Both the position numbers and the translations under genes were made by a program. Below the pieces are notes generated by a model. It was given only the letters and a program-made list of their open reading frames with translations, ran no database searches and had not been told where the DNA came from. 64,000 bases of DNA. Origin: a virus (lineage: Duplodnaviria > Caudoviricetes). Location of the stretch: IMG/VR virus record IMGVR_UViG_2811995030_000001, positions 72,535 to 136,534 of that record, one strand, 5' to 3'. Shown here in pieces: positions 51,680 to 60,316 of this stretch; the stretch's first letter is position 1, and every line of letters begins with the position of its first letter.

Positions 51680-52006
51680 ATGCAACCGTATTTTTACAAC
51701 GCAGAATGTATAGGTGTGACGGACGGTGACACCTGTACGGTCAAAATTGATGTTGGATTTGGATTCAGCACAATACAAAAATTAAGGTTTCTAGGAGTTA
51801 ATACACCAGAAAGACATGTAGAAGGCTATGAAGAGGCTACACAATTTACTGAAGATAAAATTTTAAATAAAGAGATTATCATTAACACACATAAGAAAGA
51901 TGCTTTTGGCAGATGGTTAGCAGATATTTATTATAAAGAAGATGATGCTTATAGATCATTAAATGAGGATTTATTAACAAATGAGTTAGCTGTAGTTTAT
52001 AAATAA
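51680..52006 (+). CDS. thermonuclease (SNase) family protein without signal peptide
   Basis: DGDT; RFLGVNTPE; DAFGRWLA; LNEDLL. Confidence 0.85.
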   Translation: MQPYFYNAECIGVTDGDTCTVKIDVGFGFSTIQKLRFLGVNTPERHVEGYEEATQFTEDKILNKEIIINTHKKDAFGRWLADIYYKEDDAYRSLNEDLLTNELAVVYK

Positions 52007-52030
52007 AATACATAAGTGGGAGCGTGTTAT

Positions 52031-52321
52031 ATGAAAAGTATTTTAGGCGTATTGTTAATTCTTGGTGGAGTTGTTTTAGGAGCATATGTTGGAGTTTGGG
52101 TATGCTTAGTTGGTGGAATTGTTGGATTAGTTTCAGCAGTAAATATGTTGATTGATAAAGAAGGATTGGATGGAATGTTGGTTGCTTTCAGCATTTTGAA
52201 GATTATGTTTGCAGGATTCTTCGGATACATTAGTGTAGTTGTTGGATTCTTCTCAGGAGCAGCTCTATTAGCCTCAGATTCACCTAAAAAGAGAAACAGA
52301 AAGAAAAAGAAAACTACATAA
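52031..52321 (+). CDS. small membrane protein
   Basis: Gly-rich hydrophobic helices, basic tail; GGGAG SD. Confidence 0.7.
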   Translation: MKSILGVLLILGGVVLGAYVGVWVCLVGGIVGLVSAVNMLIDKEGLDGMLVAFSILKIMFAGFFGYISVVVGFFSGAALLASDSPKKRNRKKKKTT

Positions 52322-52362
52322 AACTTATCTTTTAAGTTAACCTATTTTAAGGGGGTGAGCAG

Positions 52363-53196
52363 ATGGGTGAGGAATTAGATTTGAGAGGACATATTAACAG
52401 TGTTATAAACAACCAAATCCATGATAAAAGCAACGTAGCGCTTCTTTTTAGTGGAGGTACAGATTCTCTAACTTGCCTATTCTCTCTTCTGGAGAGTGGT
52501 ATCAGACCTACATTATATTCATTTCATCTGGAGGGAGTTATCCATAAGGATATTGAAATTAGTAAGCAGGTTGCAGAGTTCTATAATCTGAAGCACAAAA
52601 TTATAGTGATAAAAAAGGATGTTGAACAATTACAAAAAGACGTTAGATATTTAATTTCTCAATTTGAGATATTTCGTAAAACTAATGTCCAGTGTACCTA
52701 TCCATTTCTACATGTACTTCCTAAAGTTCAAGAGAGTTTTGTAATGACAGGTTTATGTGCTGATGATTTGTACGGAACAGCTAAAAGTGTTGCAATTAAA
52801 GGAGCGAAAAGCAAAGAAACGTTTGATACAATCAGGAATAAAACTCTAAGCAACTTAAATTCATCTGCCTACAGATCTATTAAACAATTAGTTGAAGATG
52901 TTTTTCAAAAGAAATTTATTGTTCCCTATAGAGAAGAGAGTGTTATAAGTTACTTTATGAACTTTTCATGGGAAGAGCTAAATAGACCTAAGCAAAAACA
53001 AATCGCAGTAAAGGCTTATGCTGATTACTTTGATAAGCAAAAAATTTATAGAAGAAATACAAACTTACAAGTGGGATCAAAAATTAGAGAATGGCATGAT
53101 GAATTATTGAAAACTGAACTTAATGTTAACAATAGAAAGAGAGTAGATGAAATCTATAAAGATATAAGAAGGGAGTTAAACAATGGGGATTTATAA
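52363..53196 (+). CDS. asparagine-synthetase C-terminal-domain-like ATP-dependent amide ligase (no glutaminase domain)
   Basis: PP-loop LLFSGGTDS; VMTGLCADDLYG (cf. AsnB SGEGADELFG); VPY; R....LQ.GS. Confidence 0.8.
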   Translation: MGEELDLRGHINSVINNQIHDKSNVALLFSGGTDSLTCLFSLLESGIRPTLYSFHLEGVIHKDIEISKQVAEFYNLKHKIIVIKKDVEQLQKDVRYLISQFEIFRKTNVQCTYPFLHVLPKVQESFVMTGLCADDLYGTAKSVAIKGAKSKETFDTIRNKTLSNLNSSAYRSIKQLVEDVFQKKFIVPYREESVISYFMNFSWEELNRPKQKQIAVKAYADYFDKQKIYRRNTNLQVGSKIREWHDELLKTELNVNNRKRVDEIYKDIRRELNNGDL

Positions 53197-53875
53197 AGAA
53201 TGCGATTGGAAATTTGATAAGGAAGTTGTTCCTATATTTGAGAGCCATGTGCGTAAATCAGTCCCGATGTATGAAGAAATACATAGTCTTATCAATGATA
53301 TTTCAGGTTGGTTTATTGAAGATGATACAAATGTTTATGACATTGGAACATCTACAGGGGAGACTCTAACCAACCTATTGAATTCATATCCAAATAAAAA
53401 AGCTAAATACTTTGGCATAGATAGTTCTTTAGAAATGATTGAAAAAGCTAAAGAAAAATTAAAGTATAATAATGTACAGTTTATTCACGATGACGTAACA
53501 GAAGGCTTTACTTTTGATAACGCCAGTTTAACAGTCTCAATGCTTACTATGATGTTCATATCTGAAAAGAAGCGACAAAATTTAGTAGATAAAATATATA
53601 AGGGGCTAAATAAAGGAGGTGCATTCATTCTAGTTGAAAAAGTAATCGGGAGTAATGCAAGATTTAATGAGATTTGGATAGAGCTGTATCATCAATTAAA
53701 GCTAAAAAACGATATTGATGAAAAGGATGTGTTCGCTAAATCTCGTGCCATTAGAGGAGTTTTAAAACCTTACACTGTTCAAGAGAATATACATATGCTA
53801 GAAAGCGCAGGATTTACGAAAATTGATACATTTTTTAAATGGAATAACTTCGTAGGAATCCTTTGTGTTAAGTAA
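53183..53875 (+). CDS. cmoA: CmoA-like carboxy-S-adenosylmethionine synthase / class I MTase fold
   Basis: Colinear with E. coli CmoA as recalled: DW.FD..V...F.....SVP.Y; VYD.G.S.G; ID.S..MIE; NAS; DKIY.GLN.GGA..L.EK; AGF...F...NF. Confidence 0.8.
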   Translation: MGIYKECDWKFDKEVVPIFESHVRKSVPMYEEIHSLINDISGWFIEDDTNVYDIGTSTGETLTNLLNSYPNKKAKYFGIDSSLEMIEKAKEKLKYNNVQFIHDDVTEGFTFDNASLTVSMLTMMFISEKKRQNLVDKIYKGLNKGGAFILVEKVIGSNARFNEIWIELYHQLKLKNDIDEKDVFAKSRAIRGVLKPYTVQENIHMLESAGFTKIDTFFKWNNFVGILCVK

Positions 53876-53923
53876 AATAAAATAAAATACATAATTGAAT
53901 AATTTGAGATTTGGAGTGAATTT

Positions 53924-55126
53924 ATGAAATATATAGATTTATTTGCAGGTATAGGTGGATTTCGTTATGGATTAGATGATGCAGGATATGAATGTGTTTT
54001 TACATCAGAAATAGATACAGTTCCAAGTGAAATGTATAAGCTTCTTCATAATGAACAAGAAATACATGGAGACATAACTAAGATAAACGCAGAAGATATA
54101 CCTGATCATGATTTGTTGGTGGGAGGGTTTCCATGTCAAGGTTTCTCAACAAATGGTACTAGATTAGGCTTCAAGTACAAGACAGGAAATTTATTCTTTG
54201 AAGCTCTACGTGTTGCCAAGGAAAAGAAACCTAAATATGTATTAATGGAAAACGTTACCGGTCTTCTTAATCATGACAAGGGTAAAACGATTTCTATTAT
54301 GATGAAAAGTCTTTCTGATGCAGGCTATTCTGTAGACTTTCATATTCTAACTTCTACAGATTTTGGGCTTCCTCAAAAACGGAGTAGAGTGTTTATAGTA
54401 GGAGTTCTTAACTACGAAACAGAGGATTGGAAAGAGACTGAAATCAAACAGGTTAATAGAGCGAAGGAAATTGTGAAAAATAATTTCCCTGATGTTAAAA
54501 GTTTTAATTTCCCTTATCCCGTAGGAACCAAGCATTGTAATTCTTTAGAGAGTGTACTAGATGAAGACATTGATGGTAATCAAATTGAGTATTTGGAGTT
54601 TGGTGATTTTCTAAAGTATTTAGGAGATGGTGTATATAGGATTAAAGATGGCACAAATAAGGGATATACGGATTTTAAGCCTATTCCAAATGAAACAACC
54701 ATAGATTATACTTTCACAACAAGTAAAACTAGAAGGGGGAGGATAAAACACGGAGCTACAAAAACACTTGATCAGTCTGTAGATGTGGCTTTATTTGATG
54801 GAAATGGATTTAGAAGAATTGGTGCTAAAGAGGTTTTTAGATTGCAAGGGTTTCCTGACTCAGCTTATAATCTTTTAAAAGAAAAGGGGTTTAAAGAAAA
54901 TCAATTATATAGACGACCTTCAAGAAGTGTGAGTATACCTATTATAAAAAACTTGGGAGAAAGTCTACATAAGTTTCATGAAGAATTAAATACTGTTACC
55001 AAATGTAGTAATTGTAAGCATTGGGCTGAAATAGATGAAGGAATTGGAGTATGTGAAAATGAAGAAACTGTAGAGTTACATACAATGAAAGACGATGGTT
55101 GTACCATCCAAAATACATATATTTAA
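53924..55126 (+). CDS. C5 cytosine DNA methyltransferase family; predicted carboxymethyltransferase
   Basis: Motif I DLFAGIGG, IV GFPCQ, VI ENV, VIII QKRSR, IX RLQGFPD; motif X reads YRRPSRSV instead of YKQ.GNSV. Confidence 0.85.
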   Translation: MKYIDLFAGIGGFRYGLDDAGYECVFTSEIDTVPSEMYKLLHNEQEIHGDITKINAEDIPDHDLLVGGFPCQGFSTNGTRLGFKYKTGNLFFEALRVAKEKKPKYVLMENVTGLLNHDKGKTISIMMKSLSDAGYSVDFHILTSTDFGLPQKRSRVFIVGVLNYETEDWKETEIKQVNRAKEIVKNNFPDVKSFNFPYPVGTKHCNSLESVLDEDIDGNQIEYLEFGDFLKYLGDGVYRIKDGTNKGYTDFKPIPNETTIDYTFTTSKTRRGRIKHGATKTLDQSVDVALFDGNGFRRIGAKEVFRLQGFPDSAYNLLKEKGFKENQLYRRPSRSVSIPIIKNLGESLHKFHEELNTVTKCSNCKHWAEIDEGIGVCENEETVELHTMKDDGCTIQNTYI

Positions 55127-56712: not shown

Positions 56713-57090
56713 ATGCTAATTATTTATGACTCAAGAACAGGAAATGTTGAGAGATTCATAAACAAACTAGAATTGAGTCATGTTCAGAAGATTAAAGAGG
56801 AATTAAAAGTAAATGAAGATTTCATCCTGATAACTTACACTACAGGGTTTGGGCAAGTACCAGAAACAACAACAACATTCTTAAATAACAACAGTGAGCA
56901 TTTAAAAGCCGTTGCAGTCAGTGGAAATAGGAACTGGGGCATGTCATACGGCAAGGCTGGAGACACTATATCACAGCAATATGAAGTGCCCTTACTTCTA
57001 AAGTTTGAGCTATCAGGGACTAAAAAAGACATTAACACAATTACTCAGGAGGTTTTGCGATTTGACAGAAATGCTACCGAAATGGATTAA
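56713..57090 (+). CDS. nrdI: class Ib RNR flavodoxin NrdI
   Basis: IYDSRTGNVERF; ITYTTGFGQVP; SGNRNWG; LLKFELSG. Confidence 0.95.
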   Translation: MLIIYDSRTGNVERFINKLELSHVQKIKEELKVNEDFILITYTTGFGQVPETTTTFLNNNSEHLKAVAVSGNRNWGMSYGKAGDTISQQYEVPLLLKFELSGTKKDINTITQEVLRFDRNATEMD

Positions 57091-60000
57091 ACTTAATAAT
57101 GAAATTATGATTAAGAAAGATGGAAAGTTTCAGTTTGAGAAAGATAAAGAAGCTGTAAAGAGCTACTTCGTAGACTATGTAAATCAAAACACAGTATTCT
57201 TTCATGACTTGAAAGAGAAGCTAGATTACCTGATTGAAAATGATTACTATGAAGAAGAATTTTTAAAACAATATACTTTTGAACAAGTAAAAGAAGTATT
57301 TAAAATGGCTTACAAGAAAAAGTTTAGATTCCCTTCATACATGAGCGCATTTAAGTTTTACAACGATTATGCACTTAAAACAAACGATAAGAAGAAAATT
57401 CTAGAGCGTTATGAGGATCGTCTAGCAATCATGGCTTTATATTTGTCAGATGGAAACTTTGAGAAGGCTAAGAAGATGGTTAAAATGTTCATTAATCAAG
57501 AGTATCAGCCAGCTACACCCACAACTTTAAACAGTGGACGTAAGCGAAGAGGCGAACTGGTAAGTTGTTTCTTGTTAGAGGTTAATGACTCACTTAATGA
57601 CATTTCGAGAGCTTTAGAAATCTCTATGCAACTATCTAAAGTAGGTGGAGGAGTTAGTTTAAACTTATCAAAAATTAGAGCAAGAGGAGAGTCAATTAAA
57701 GAGGTTGAAGGAGTTACAAAAGGTGTCGTGGGAGTTATGAAGCTTCTAGATCACGCCTTTAGATATGCTGACCAACAAGGACAACGACAAGGAAGTGGAG
57801 CTGCTTATCTTCATATTAACCACGCAGATATTAATGATTTCCTTGATACAAGAAAGATTTCAGCAGATGAAGATGTTCGGGTTAAAACATTATCCATTGG
57901 GGTAGTTATTCCAAATAAATTTATTGAATTAGCCAGAGAAAATAAAGATGTCTATCTATTCTATCCTTACACAGTATATAAAGAATATGGGCAACACATG
58001 GATGACATGGATATGGATGAGATGTATGACAAACTCGTTGCCAATCCTAATGTACGCAAAGATAAAACTAACGCACGTAAACTACTAGAAAAGTTAGCAG
58101 TCTTACGCAGTGAATCAGGTTACCCTTATATCATGTTTGAGAATAATGTTAATGATGTACATACATTAAATAATATTGCGAAAGTTAAATATTCTAACTT
58201 GTGTGTTACAGGAGATACTAAATTACTAACTGATGAAGGACAAATTACAGCAAAAGAACTTTATGAGTCTCAGAAGGAATTAACTGTTGTAATTGATAAA
58301 CGAACAAAAGAATTAAGTGTTTCTGATAAAGGTACTGAAAATGCTAAAGCTATCCCGATGCAATTAACTAAAACTGGAGCAAACGTTTATGAGATCAAAA
58401 CGAAACAGGGCTTCTCAATTAAATCTACAGATTGGCATAAGTATTATGTGAAAGATGGAGATGAGATTAAAAAGCTTCCATTAAATGAACTTAAGATTGG
58501 AGATAGACTATTAGTTCAGTCAGGAGAAGGTAACTATGGAAAGACTCATGAGCCTGATTTAGCTTATCTTATGGGAGTTATTGCAGGAGATGGAACATTC
58601 ACAGATAAACAAGTTAAGGTTTATCTCTATGATAATAAGAAGTCGCTTAAGGATAAGGTAACTCAAAAAGTTCATGATGTAATTAAGACACATAAAATCA
58701 ATAGAGTCTACAAACACAATACATCGTTTACACCTGAATTTCATTTGGCTAATCCTGAAAAGCAAGATATGTTATATATGAGCACAACTGTACTGCATGA
58801 CATTCTACATAAGTTTGGGATGAATAAAGAAAACAAAACACGAGTACCAAAATTCATATTTGAAGCAGATAAACAAACACAATGTGCATATTTATCAGGG
58901 CTGTTTCAAATGGACGGTACTGTAAATGCAAATCATAAAGCGAGAGCGTTAACTATTGAATTAGGATCAATTGATTTAGAAGGTCTTCAAGACATTCAAA
59001 AGCTACTTATAAATATGGGGATTTATTCAACAATTTATAGTAACTATAAACGTTCTACAGAACTCCTTCCTGATGGGAATGGTGGACACAAACTTTATAA
59101 TGTAAAGCCTGCTCATAAACTGTCTATTCAAGATAGAAAATCAAGAGAAGAATTTGTAAGAGTGATAGAGTTGAAAGAGTATGACATGTATAAATTTAAC
59201 TCGCTAACAGAAACTTTACAGCCTAAATCTAGAAATCCTAAACATGATTTTACTGCTGAGATTGAATCTATTGAGCATTGTGGAGTAGAGGATGTGTATG
59301 ATACAACTCAAGAAGATTATCACTCACTTATCTTTAATGGAATTGTAACAGGAAATTGTAGTGAAATCCTTCAGTCATCTATTGTATCTAACTACACAGA
59401 CTACGGAGAAGTTGATAACTTGGGACTTGATATTTCTTGTAACCTTGGATCGTTAAATATTGTTAATGTTATGAGCAATAAGTCAATTAAAGAGTCAGTG
59501 AAGTTAGCAGTAGATGCTTTGACTAGTGTAGTAAGGAAAACAAGTATTGCTAATGCTCCTGCTGTAAGAAAAGCAAATGATAAAATGAGGTCAATTGGCT
59601 TGGGAGCAATGAATTTACACGGTTACTTAGTGAAAAACGGATTGATGTATGAAAGTGCAGAGGCTAGAGACTTCGCTAACACATTCTTCATGATGATGAA
59701 TTACTACTCACTTGAGCGTTCAATGGAGTTAGCGAAAGAAACAGGTGAAAAGTTTTACGGATTTGAAGGCTCTACATATGCTACAGGGGAATATTTTGAT
59801 AAATACATAAGTAAAGATTTTACTCCTGAATTTGAAAAGATTGCTAAATTGTTTGATGGTCAACCTATTCCTACTAAAGAGGACTGGATTAGACTCAAAG
59901 AACAAGTACAAAAATATGGTCTTTACAATAGTTATCGCTTAGCAATTCCACCTACAGGTTCAATTTCATACGTACAATCAAGCACAGCAGCCGTAATGCC

Positions 60001-60316
60001 TATCATGGAACGTATTGAAGAGCGTACATACGGAAATTCAAAAACATTCTATCCTATGCCTTTCTTATCTGATAAGAATTGGTTCTACTATAAAGAAGCT
60101 TATGACATGGATATGTTTAAAGTAATAGATATGATTGCTACTATTCAGCAACATGTGGATCAAGGTATCTCATTTACACTATTCCTTAAAGACACGATGA
60201 CAACTAGGGATGTTAATAAGATTGACTTATACGCTCATCACAAAGGAATTAAGACTTTATACTACGCTAGAACAAAAGACACTACTCAAGAAGATTGCTT
60301 ATCTTGCCAAGTTTAA
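57062..60316 (+). CDS. nrdE: class Ib ribonucleotide reductase alpha subunit (intein-containing)
   Basis: WIKLNNE; ERYEDR; QPATPT; GELVSCFLL; SNL|C..N|CSEI; PTGSISY; C-terminal CLSCQV. TTG start after AGGAGG. Confidence 0.96.
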   Translation: MTEMLPKWIKLNNEIMIKKDGKFQFEKDKEAVKSYFVDYVNQNTVFFHDLKEKLDYLIENDYYEEEFLKQYTFEQVKEVFKMAYKKKFRFPSYMSAFKFYNDYALKTNDKKKILERYEDRLAIMALYLSDGNFEKAKKMVKMFINQEYQPATPTTLNSGRKRRGELVSCFLLEVNDSLNDISRALEISMQLSKVGGGVSLNLSKIRARGESIKEVEGVTKGVVGVMKLLDHAFRYADQQGQRQGSGAAYLHINHADINDFLDTRKISADEDVRVKTLSIGVVIPNKFIELARENKDVYLFYPYTVYKEYGQHMDDMDMDEMYDKLVANPNVRKDKTNARKLLEKLAVLRSESGYPYIMFENNVNDVHTLNNIAKVKYSNLCVTGDTKLLTDEGQITAKELYESQKELTVVIDKRTKELSVSDKGTENAKAIPMQLTKTGANVYEIKTKQGFSIKSTDWHKYYVKDGDEIKKLPLNELKIGDRLLVQSGEGNYGKTHEPDLAYLMGVIAGDGTFTDKQVKVYLYDNKKSLKDKVTQKVHDVIKTHKINRVYKHNTSFTPEFHLANPEKQDMLYMSTTVLHDILHKFGMNKENKTRVPKFIFEADKQTQCAYLSGLFQMDGTVNANHKARALTIELGSIDLEGLQDIQKLLINMGIYSTIYSNYKRSTELLPDGNGGHKLYNVKPAHKLSIQDRKSREEFVRVIELKEYDMYKFNSLTETLQPKSRNPKHDFTAEIESIEHCGVEDVYDTTQEDYHSLIFNGIVTGNCSEILQSSIVSNYTDYGEVDNLGLDISCNLGSLNIVNVMSNKSIKESVKLAVDALTSVVRKTSIANAPAVRKANDKMRSIGLGAMNLHGYLVKNGLMYESAEARDFANTFFMMMNYYSLERSMELAKETGEKFYGFEGSTYATGEYFDKYISKDFTPEFEKIAKLFDGQPIPTKEDWIRLKEQVQKYGLYNSYRLAIPPTGSISYVQSSTAAVMPIMERIEERTYGNSKTFYPMPFLSDKNWFYYKEAYDMDMFKVIDMIATIQQHVDQGISFTLFLKDTMTTRDVNKIDLYAHHKGIKTLYYARTKDTTQEDCLSCQV
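58202..59356 (+). mobile_element. intein with LAGLIDADG homing endonuclease in nrdE (385 codons)
   Basis: Starts CVTGDT, ends GIVTGN before extein Cys; YLMGVIAGDG and YLSGLFQMDG motifs. Confidence 0.93.

Follow-up and report, generated by a model that had tools for sequence, protein, structure and literature searches.

The 64,000-nucleotide stretch of DNA analyzed in this study (hereafter the window; positions 72,535 to 136,534 of the IMG/VR record IMGVR_UViG_2811995030_000001) carries a three-gene cassette that most probably encodes a CmoA/CmoX/CmoY-type module for the post-replicative hypermodification of cytosine. On the basis of sequence comparisons, we put the probability of this assignment at about 0.8. 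The cassette resides in a temperate provirus of 136,534 bp that has an SPbeta-like gene order and whose final 64 kb make up the window; the CheckV completeness of the provirus is given as 100. According to the list of open reading frames (ORFs) and the domain matches, the cassette comprises three genes on the + strand. The first is a cmoY-like gene for an AsnB-type PP-loop ligase of 277 aa (52363..53196). The second is a cmoA-like gene for a predicted synthase of 230 aa (53183..53875) that would produce carboxy-S-adenosylmethionine (Cx-SAM). The third is a cmoX-like gene for a C5 cytosine DNA methyltransferase homologue of 400 aa (53924..55126), predicted to be a Cx-SAM-dependent carboxymethyltransferase. 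The original prediction, made from the window alone, had described three consecutive genes, the first two overlapping by 14 nt, that encode a PP-loop AsnB-like domain, a protein colinear with CmoA and a complete C5 methyltransferase. The ORFs and the matches to PF00733, TIGR00740 and PF00145 bear out this description. The assignment is carried by the integrity of the genes, the identity of their domains, an Arg substitution in the methyltransferase, the homology to a characterized phage system, and the near-obligate linkage of the three genes in other genomes.

The characterized system is that of Synechococcus phage S-B43, the CmoA, CmoX and CmoY proteins of which (hereafter SpCmoA, SpCmoX and SpCmoY) were described by Yang et al. 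(Nat Commun 2025; PMC12783734) and reported to be widespread in phages. SpCmoA produces Cx-SAM from S-adenosylmethionine (SAM) and prephenate. SpCmoX produces 5-carboxymethylcytosine (5cxmC) at GC sites with Cx-SAM as its only cofactor. SpCmoY, with ATP and glycine, gives 5gcxmC, and no detectable 5cxmdC was left in vivo. In the 1.9 Å structure of SpCmoX (8YF3), Arg350, located at the place of Asn304 of HhaI, contacts the carboxymethyl group, and the R350N variant accepts neither cofactor and is dead. The virion DNA of S-B43 holds 5gcxmdC, and 5cxmC blocks HhaI digestion. The survey in the same study counted 5,615 candidate CmoX proteins (defined by S-P-P-C and Arg350), 4,257 CmoA proteins and 2,251 ligases. 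It also distinguished a second ligase cluster with a glutamine amidase domain, to which ammonia was assigned, and further clusters with other active-site residues (PMC12783734). The main text of that paper makes no mention of Bacillus phages, prophages, Firmicutes or temperate phages.

The triad in the window is this published system, and the window provides a Bacillus-type example of it. The original prediction had mentioned a natural CmoA-linked enzyme of a cyanophage. That enzyme is real, and the published work already includes the third enzyme (PMC12783734). The predicted route from Cx-SAM via 5cxmC to an amide has been demonstrated experimentally for the homologous S-B43 enzymes, and by homology it would also apply to the window. 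The novelty of the combination was overrated, since the full triad had been published and described as widespread. The two systems share the three protein families, encoded on one strand, with identities of 34% (CmoY), 32% (CmoA) and 28% (CmoX), as well as the Arg of motif X and a short ligase without a glutaminase domain. They differ in gene order, which is A-Y-X in S-B43 and Y-A-X in the window. SpCmoX has S-P-P-C in motif IV, whereas the window enzyme has G-F-P-C together with an unrelated target-recognition domain and an additional four-Cys tail. The ligases belong to different clades, and S-B43 is a lytic cyanomyovirus whereas the window belongs to a temperate Bacillota-type provirus.

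The CmoX-like protein is a complete C5 DNA methyltransferase (PF00145, E 6.8e-76, residues 1-349 on positions 1-323 of the 324-position model), and its residues 1-161 match M.HhaI with E 1.2e-46. Motifs I, IV (Cys71), VI (E109-N-V), VIII (Q-K-R153-S-R155), IX and X are present, and C71, E109, R153 and R155 are invariant in alignment A2. Alignments to M.HhaI and SpCmoX placed the codon of the catalytic Cys71, in motif IV (G-F-P-C-Q), at 54134..54136 and the motif X core, R331-P-S-R334, at 54914..54925. In motif X, R-P-S-R-S-V lies over Q-F-G-N-S-V of HhaI; Arg334 stands in place of Asn304, and Arg331 in place of the conserved Gln. The N-terminal half is 28% identical to SpCmoX (E 3e-15), and Arg334 falls on Arg350 of SpCmoX (R-V-G-R350) through a weak C-terminal alignment. 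The Arg-substituted motif X that had been noticed from the sequence is therefore seen against both enzymes. As far as the engineered enzyme is described in PMC12783734, the N374K variant of M.MpeI, in which a basic residue replaces the Asn of motif X, uses Cx-SAM. M.MpeI N374K is an engineered, CpG-specific enzyme with Lys at this position, whereas the CmoX of the window is natural and has two Arg substitutions (R331 and R334).

The distribution of the Arg was examined in two sets of homologues. The first set consisted of the 120 best rows for the window methyltransferase in a search over 5.8 billion proteins. R-P-[SA]-R-[SG] is found in all of its 28 closest members (49-76% identity), against G-N-[AS] in the remaining 92. 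For twelve of the Arg-type proteins, the length of the longest contig agrees with that of a ligase match, which is a circumstantial pointer to shared contigs. The second set consisted of 82 ligase-linked methyltransferases, namely those of the window, S-B43, one Staphylococcus phage and 79 loci. Arg occupies the motif X column in 77 of them and Gly in one; in the other four the column could not be read, owing to truncation in three and to a shorter motif in one.

The CmoA-like protein is colinear with TIGR00740 (E 1.3e-47, residues 3-230 on positions 9-239 of the 239-position model). It matches E. coli CmoA (PDB 4gek) over the full length (E 1.4e-32) and is 32% identical to SpCmoA (E 4e-38). 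PMC3663124 lists Y39, D62, G64, S66, D89, D117, F137 and E164 of E. coli CmoA in connection with SAM binding. By column count on the 4gek alignment, the equivalents in the window protein are Y30, D53, G55, S57, D80, D104, F125 and E152, respectively; N90 and N132 of E. coli CmoA are replaced by Ser81 and Met120. The predicted chemistry, which would start from SAM and prephenate, is the same as in the bacterial CmoA/CmoB pathway for uridine 5-oxyacetic acid (cmo5U) in tRNA. In contrast to that pathway, no CmoB gene adjoins the cassette; a DNA methyltransferase would act as the acceptor enzyme instead. It had also been argued that the phage has to supply the cofactor. A B. subtilis control genome gave no match to TIGR00740, which fits the argument as far as this control genome goes.

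The CmoY-like protein matches PF00733 (Asn_synthase; E 1.2e-9, residues 11-168), with weaker matches to QueC models, and falls in the uncharacterized phage family phrog_26038 (E 1.4e-34). Its AlphaFold2 (AF2) model, built with 35 sequences, has a mean predicted local distance difference test score (pLDDT) of 96. In Foldseek, the model best matches the C-terminal synthetase domains of asparagine synthetases (human and E. coli), carbapenam synthetase and beta-lactam synthetase (TMq 0.72-0.76). These matches indicate that CmoY comprises an entire synthetase domain of the AsnB type and lacks a glutaminase domain, and no gene for a partner amidotransferase was found beside it. Judging from the model, CmoY probably shares both the fold and the PP-loop adenylation chemistry of these synthetases. 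It differs from them in sequence (15-17% identity), in the absence of the N-terminal glutaminase domain, and in its predicted acyl substrate, which would be a modified base in DNA.

The PP-loop, S30-G-G-T-D-S35, is the ATP pyrophosphatase signature and was located at 52450..52467 from conservation in the family. S30, G32, D34 and S35 are conserved in 95-99% of 182 distinct family members and are invariant in alignment A1. Together with K106, D134, R158, K212, Q236 and S239, the PP-loop forms a catalytic core conserved in the 182 sequences. CmoY is 34% identical to SpCmoY over 246 residues (24-267; E 2e-46), the two proteins being 277 and 271 aa long. In the phage collection, 58 records match the window ligase; the best are SpCmoY and two near-identical cyanophage copies (34%, 88% of the query), and no Bacillus phage is among the 58. 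A role of the ligase in deazaguanine synthesis, of the QueC type, was considered and rejected: the provirus has no match to tRNA-guanine transglycosylase (TGT) or DpdA-type genes, and the fold and the best homologues are those of AsnB and CmoY.

The linkage of the three genes was analyzed with a profile of 35 ligase homologues, which was used to search public contigs. In 74 of the 80 viral loci found with this profile, the ligase, CmoA and a C5 methyltransferase are encoded on one strand. The six exceptions (L029, L047, L048, L068, L076 and L092) all have a contig end next to the ligase. The three-gene arrangement is therefore not a matter of chance. Co-occurrence of the triad had been set beforehand as a check on the original prediction, and the neighborhood survey came out in its favor. 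Five gene orders were found among the 74 loci, with A, X and Y standing for CmoA, CmoX and CmoY: YXA in 40, XAY in 12, AYX in 11, XYA in six and AXY in five. Not one of the 74 complete viral loci shows the order of the window, Y-A-X, which is also missing from L001, L002, L004 and L005. The closest relatives (L004, L015 and L016) have the order CmoA-methyltransferase-ligase. The module is 57-72% identical in these three loci, where the 3D-domain gene is the only flanking gene that matches (31-36%). The module thus moves as a unit.

Related ligases were also found in cellular genomes. A single-protein search of bacterial and archaeal genome contigs gave no match, and the profile search of bacterial and archaeal genomes gave 11 loci, three of which hold family members (at least 38% identity). 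All three genes are present in two of these three, those of Lederbergia citrisecunda (57%) and a Bacillota metagenome-assembled genome (44%) (L004 and L005). In the third, Bacillus sp. M6-12 (38%, L006), the ligase stands alone beside an integrase.

These results can be set against the reading that the methyltransferase is an ordinary SAM-dependent 5-methylcytosine (5mC) enzyme, the counterpart of SPbeta MtbP, and that the CmoA-like and AsnB-like genes are unrelated neighbors with tRNA or small molecules as substrates, for example in a QueC-like role or in nucleotide metabolism. The gene does occupy the slot of SPbeta mtbP, its catalytic domain is most like that of M.HhaI, the CmoA score lies under the equivalog cut-off, and the ligase weakly matches QueC models. 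Unrelated neighbors, however, would hardly be found together in 74 of 80 loci in five different orders. The Asn present in all 92 more distant homologues is replaced by Arg, and the Arg-bearing SpCmoX took only Cx-SAM while its R350N variant took neither cofactor (PMC12783734). Moreover, neither a CmoB-like gene nor one for deazaguanine insertion was found, and the provirus has no TGT match. We consider this reading very improbable.

For the hypermodification module, the following account of the chemistry, including the coupled amine, the sequence targeted and the protection against restriction, is inferred. CmoA would convert SAM and host prephenate to Cx-SAM. Arg334, together with Arg331, which replace the Asn and the Gln of motif X, would pair with the carboxylate of the cofactor. 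CmoX would flip out the cytosine, Cys71 would attack C6, and the carboxymethyl group would be transferred to C5, giving 5cxmC at a sequence motif. CmoY would adenylate the carboxylate of 5cxmC and couple an amine to it. The modified phage DNA would be expected to resist restriction endonucleases.

Several observations weigh against this scheme, which is supported by homology and gene linkage. The CmoA-like protein scores 162.5 bits on TIGR00740, below the cut-off of 193.3. The experimentally active SpCmoA, however, scores 115.6 bits, less than the window protein. The cut-off therefore excludes true phage CmoA proteins, and the sub-threshold score of the window protein is not evidence against CmoA function. 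A second point concerns Arg199 of E. coli CmoA, which forms a salt bridge to the carboxylate of Cx-SAM according to PMC3663124. The corresponding column holds Ser187 in the window protein, flanked by Lys186 and Arg188. SpCmoA has Glu in this column with Lys beside it, and since this active enzyme also lacks the Arg, Ser187 does not disqualify the window protein. Lys186 is kept in 66 of 68 phage CmoA homologues, whereas the two positions after it are variable. A chorismate mutase gene, which could help to supply prephenate, is absent from the provirus.

For the methyltransferase, the AF2 model (mean pLDDT 86) finds M.HhaI (TMt 0.77) and M.HaeIII as the best Foldseek matches, and SpCmoX (8yf3) ranks 37th (TMt 0.70). 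Overall, the window CmoX resembles M.HhaI, an ordinary 5mC enzyme, more than it resembles SpCmoX. It also has G-F-P-C where the definition of CmoX by Yang et al. has S-P-P-C in motif IV. Among the 82 methyltransferases linked to CmoY, motif IV is SPPC in 68, GFPC in five, SFPC in four, GSPC in one and GTPC in one, and is unreadable in three. It would seem that S-P-P-C is a trait of the S-B43 lineage and not a requirement of the chemistry, and a literal S-P-P-C filter, as in the published survey, would probably have missed the CmoX lineage of the window. The Arg is not universal among CmoA-linked methyltransferases either. Two Staphylococcus phages have Gly-Gly, and L020 and an enzyme of Bacillus sp. 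M6-12 have a shorter motif X without Arg. In the latter genome, moreover, CmoA and two methyltransferase homologues lie about 315 kb from the ligase on the same contig (L099). Near the other eight of the 11 bacterial and archaeal loci (18-26% identity, mostly archaeal, with longer AsnB-like ORFs), neither CmoA nor CmoX is encoded; we regard these loci as lying outside the CmoY family.

A few details of these exceptional enzymes are recorded here. One of the two M6-12 methyltransferases has the shortened motif X E-R-C-S-G-I-P, as in L020, and the other has S-P-P-S in motif IV and no catalytic Cys. The Gly-Gly enzymes, encoded in Staphylococcus phage SPbeta-like (NC_029119; L098, 5995-7694) and Staphylococcus phage vB-SscS-F1 (L002, 3254-5772), have V-V-G-G-V in motif X. 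One of them belongs to a two-gene cassette without a ligase, the other is found with a CmoY homologue, and a definition of CmoX based on Arg350 would miss both.

The last point to be weighed against the scheme concerns the ligase and bears on the end product. In a clade split of the 182 ligases, the window clade has 85 members and the SpCmoY clade 25. Six positions, each conserved within the clades, differ between the window clade and the SpCmoY clade: Q110/E, R230/K, N232/H, E243/K-H, H245/F and Y265/C-A. Glycine is therefore not assured as the amine of the window CmoY. Position 230 is basic in both clades (Arg and Lys), which would be compatible with the binding of an amino-acid carboxylate. 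By homology, glycine is the leading candidate, giving 5gcxmC; within the pathway we would allot about half of the weight to it, about a third to another amino acid or amine, and the rest to ammonia or no ligation.

Ammonia is the usual nucleophile of AsnB-type synthetase domains. The ligase might accordingly use free ammonia within the same pathway to give 5-carbamoylmethylcytosine, or poor ligation might leave mainly 5cxmC. The six clade-specific differences from the glycine-using SpCmoY clade would fit this view. So would the existence of two-gene cassettes of CmoA and methyltransferase without a ligase, for example in Staphylococcus phage SPbeta-like, which indicate that 5cxmC alone can be an end product. 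On the other hand, the window ligase has neither a glutaminase domain nor an adjoining amidotransferase gene, and position 230 is still basic. Yang et al. gave ammonia to the other, amidase-bearing cluster, and the sole characterized enzyme of the short architecture uses glycine and cleared detectable 5cxmdC in vivo (PMC12783734). An outcome with ammonia or unligated 5cxmC is therefore unlikely. The original prediction had named 5-carbamoylmethylcytosine first. The amide of 5-carboxymethylcytosine is retained as the expected end product; the carbamoyl form is less likely than an amide of glycine or another amino acid, because the window ligase lacks a glutaminase domain and shares its short architecture with SpCmoY, a glycine ligase.

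We may tentatively go one step further within the CmoA/CmoX/CmoY scheme. It is conceivable, although we would not expect it, that the window ligase clade couples a non-glycine amine to 5cxmC, which would give a cytosine amide not yet described in temperate Bacillota phage DNA. With similar reserve, this base might be installed by a CmoX lineage characterized by G-F-P-C in motif IV, R-P-S-R in motif X and an optional four-Cys tail. Since the element is a prophage, leaky expression could in that case also mark the host chromosome.

The origin of the Arg was analyzed with two data sets. The first tree contained 67 rows and 341 columns; the 92 N-type homologues were represented in it by 36, namely alternate ones of those up to 520 aa. 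The second analysis contained 63 rows and 330 columns, from which the motif X columns and the long branches, namely the Staphylococcus phage enzyme, L039, L053 and P0224, were left out. In the first, a free quick maximum-likelihood tree, the window clade was nested among Asn-type enzymes, with three state changes. In the second, the log-likelihood of a tree constrained to one Arg clade was 17.4 higher. A convergent origin of the Arg in the window and SpCmoX lineages was not retained, as a single Arg clade was not rejected (approximately unbiased test, p 0.76).

The sequence specificity of CmoX was also considered. No solved structure matches the target-recognition domain. This domain contains the conserved element S-K-T-R-R-G-R, which is common to other Bacillota-phage enzymes and to 14 of the 92 Asn-type homologues and is absent from SpCmoX. 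Since this domain is unrelated to that of SpCmoX, the GC specificity of SpCmoX is not transferable, and since the element also occurs in Asn-type homologues, it does not reveal the specificity. In the window, CCGG and CGCG occur at two sites each, with observed/expected ratios (O/E) of 0.17 and 0.13, and GATC has an O/E of 0.58. GCGC occurs at 34 sites (O/E 1.10) and GGCC at 29 (O/E 0.91); the O/E of the CG dinucleotide is 0.54. These counts are compatible with protection of GC-containing sites, but they are far too weak to name a motif. The scarcity of CCGG and CGCG may reflect avoidance of restriction at unprotected sites.

The C-terminal extension of CmoX (residues 357-400; 54992..55123 by the clade alignment) contains four Cys residues, C361, C364, C377 and C393, spaced as C361-x2-C364 ... 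C377 ... C393. It is present in five of 29 Arg-clade members (the window, P0112, P0113, P0114 and P0118). Its matches to HPIP_like (PF18524, E 0.005) and to the small subunit of 4-hydroxyphenylacetate decarboxylase (NF033716, E 7e-4) are sub-threshold. The tail may be a metal-binding or Fe-S-binding mini-domain. Since its AF2 pLDDT is 37-54, no structural inference was drawn. A separate observation concerns the 684-aa CmoX homologue P0136, which carries an intein-like insertion (Pfam Hint, LAGLIDADG) directly after the catalytic G-F-P-C.

With this assignment, the 5-carboxymethylcytosine system, recently discovered in a lytic cyanophage, would also be present in a large temperate provirus organized like SPbeta, and SPbeta-type phages offer an experimentally tractable Bacillus model. 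The cassette also shows that the Arg signature of CmoX can accompany the canonical Pro-Cys-Gln of motif IV in a methyltransferase lineage. In practical terms, such phage DNA may withstand restriction enzymes and may cause errors in nanopore base-calling, and the enzymes may serve to attach carboxyl or amide handles to DNA at a new sequence motif.

All three frames are intact and co-directional, and each start follows a Shine-Dalgarno-like purine run read from the sequence on the + strand. That of cmoY lies 4 nt upstream of its ATG (52350..52358), that of cmoA lies upstream of its ATG within the 3' end of cmoY (53168..53175), and that of cmoX lies upstream of its ATG (53913..53919). The overlap of cmoY and cmoA (14 nt, 53183..53196) suggests translational coupling, and 48 nt separate the end of cmoA from cmoX. 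The G+C content is even across the region (30-36%). A consensus scan found promoter-like sites to be rarer in the cassette region than in shuffled sequence and found no + strand terminator inside the cassette, which fits co-transcription within a long + strand gene array. As the record is classed as a provirus, the module might be supposed to be a decayed or silent passenger of a defective element that makes no modification now. The intact frames with ribosome-binding sites, the conserved catalytic residues, the identical CmoY protein on six contigs and the CheckV completeness of 100 make this scarcely credible. No near-identical DNA was found in the phage collection, a search that may omit records of the window's own genome.

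The genes around the cassette are arranged in the order Sak4-like, helicase, RecJ-like, DnaE-like polymerase, 3D-domain protein, small genes, cassette, small genes, nrdI, nrdE and nrdF. This order parallels yorG-yorL, yorM, mtbP and bnrdI/E/F of SPBc2. The position between the replication genes and nrdI had been identified as the place of mtbP, in agreement with the annotated SPBc2 record. SPbeta MtbP (M.SPbetaI) occupies the same slot in the co-linear order of replication, 3D-domain, methyltransferase and nrdI-nrdE-nrdF genes; it differs in its canonical Q-A-G-N motif X, is 26% identical to the window methyltransferase, and has no CmoA or ligase neighbor. The DnaE-like polymerase is 23% identical to YorL, and its best matches are those of large Clostridioides phages (47%) and Bacillus siphoviruses (38-40%). 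The likeness to SPbeta is one of synteny only and not of sequence; in calling the element SPbeta-like, the original prediction was right as to gene order and not as to sequence. A literature search found no paper pairing SPbeta with cmoA. Staphylococcus phage SPbeta-like (NC_029119) has a cmoA-hhaIM cassette in the same slot, between dnaE and an nrdI-like flavodoxin gene with nrdE. Its CmoA is 48% identical to that of the window, and its methyltransferase shares S-K-[TA]-R-R-G-R. It differs in having two genes without CmoY and Gly-Gly in motif X, not Arg as in the window. Literature searches that did not name this phage found nothing on the chemistry of its cassette.

The cassette methyltransferase is the sole C5 methyltransferase of the provirus, and ParB_N, an accessory gene noted by Yang et al., is not found in the provirus. 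Of the two ORFs directly upstream of the cassette (51680-52321), one is staphylococcal-nuclease-like (PF00565, E 1.5e-9) and the other, hydrophobic and 101 aa long, matches no family; these two genes do not adjoin the cassette in the relatives examined. Downstream, the start of the nrdE ORF (57005-60316) overlaps the end of nrdI (56713-57090). By its length of 1103 aa, nrdE could hold an intein, as annotated for bnrdE of SPBc2.

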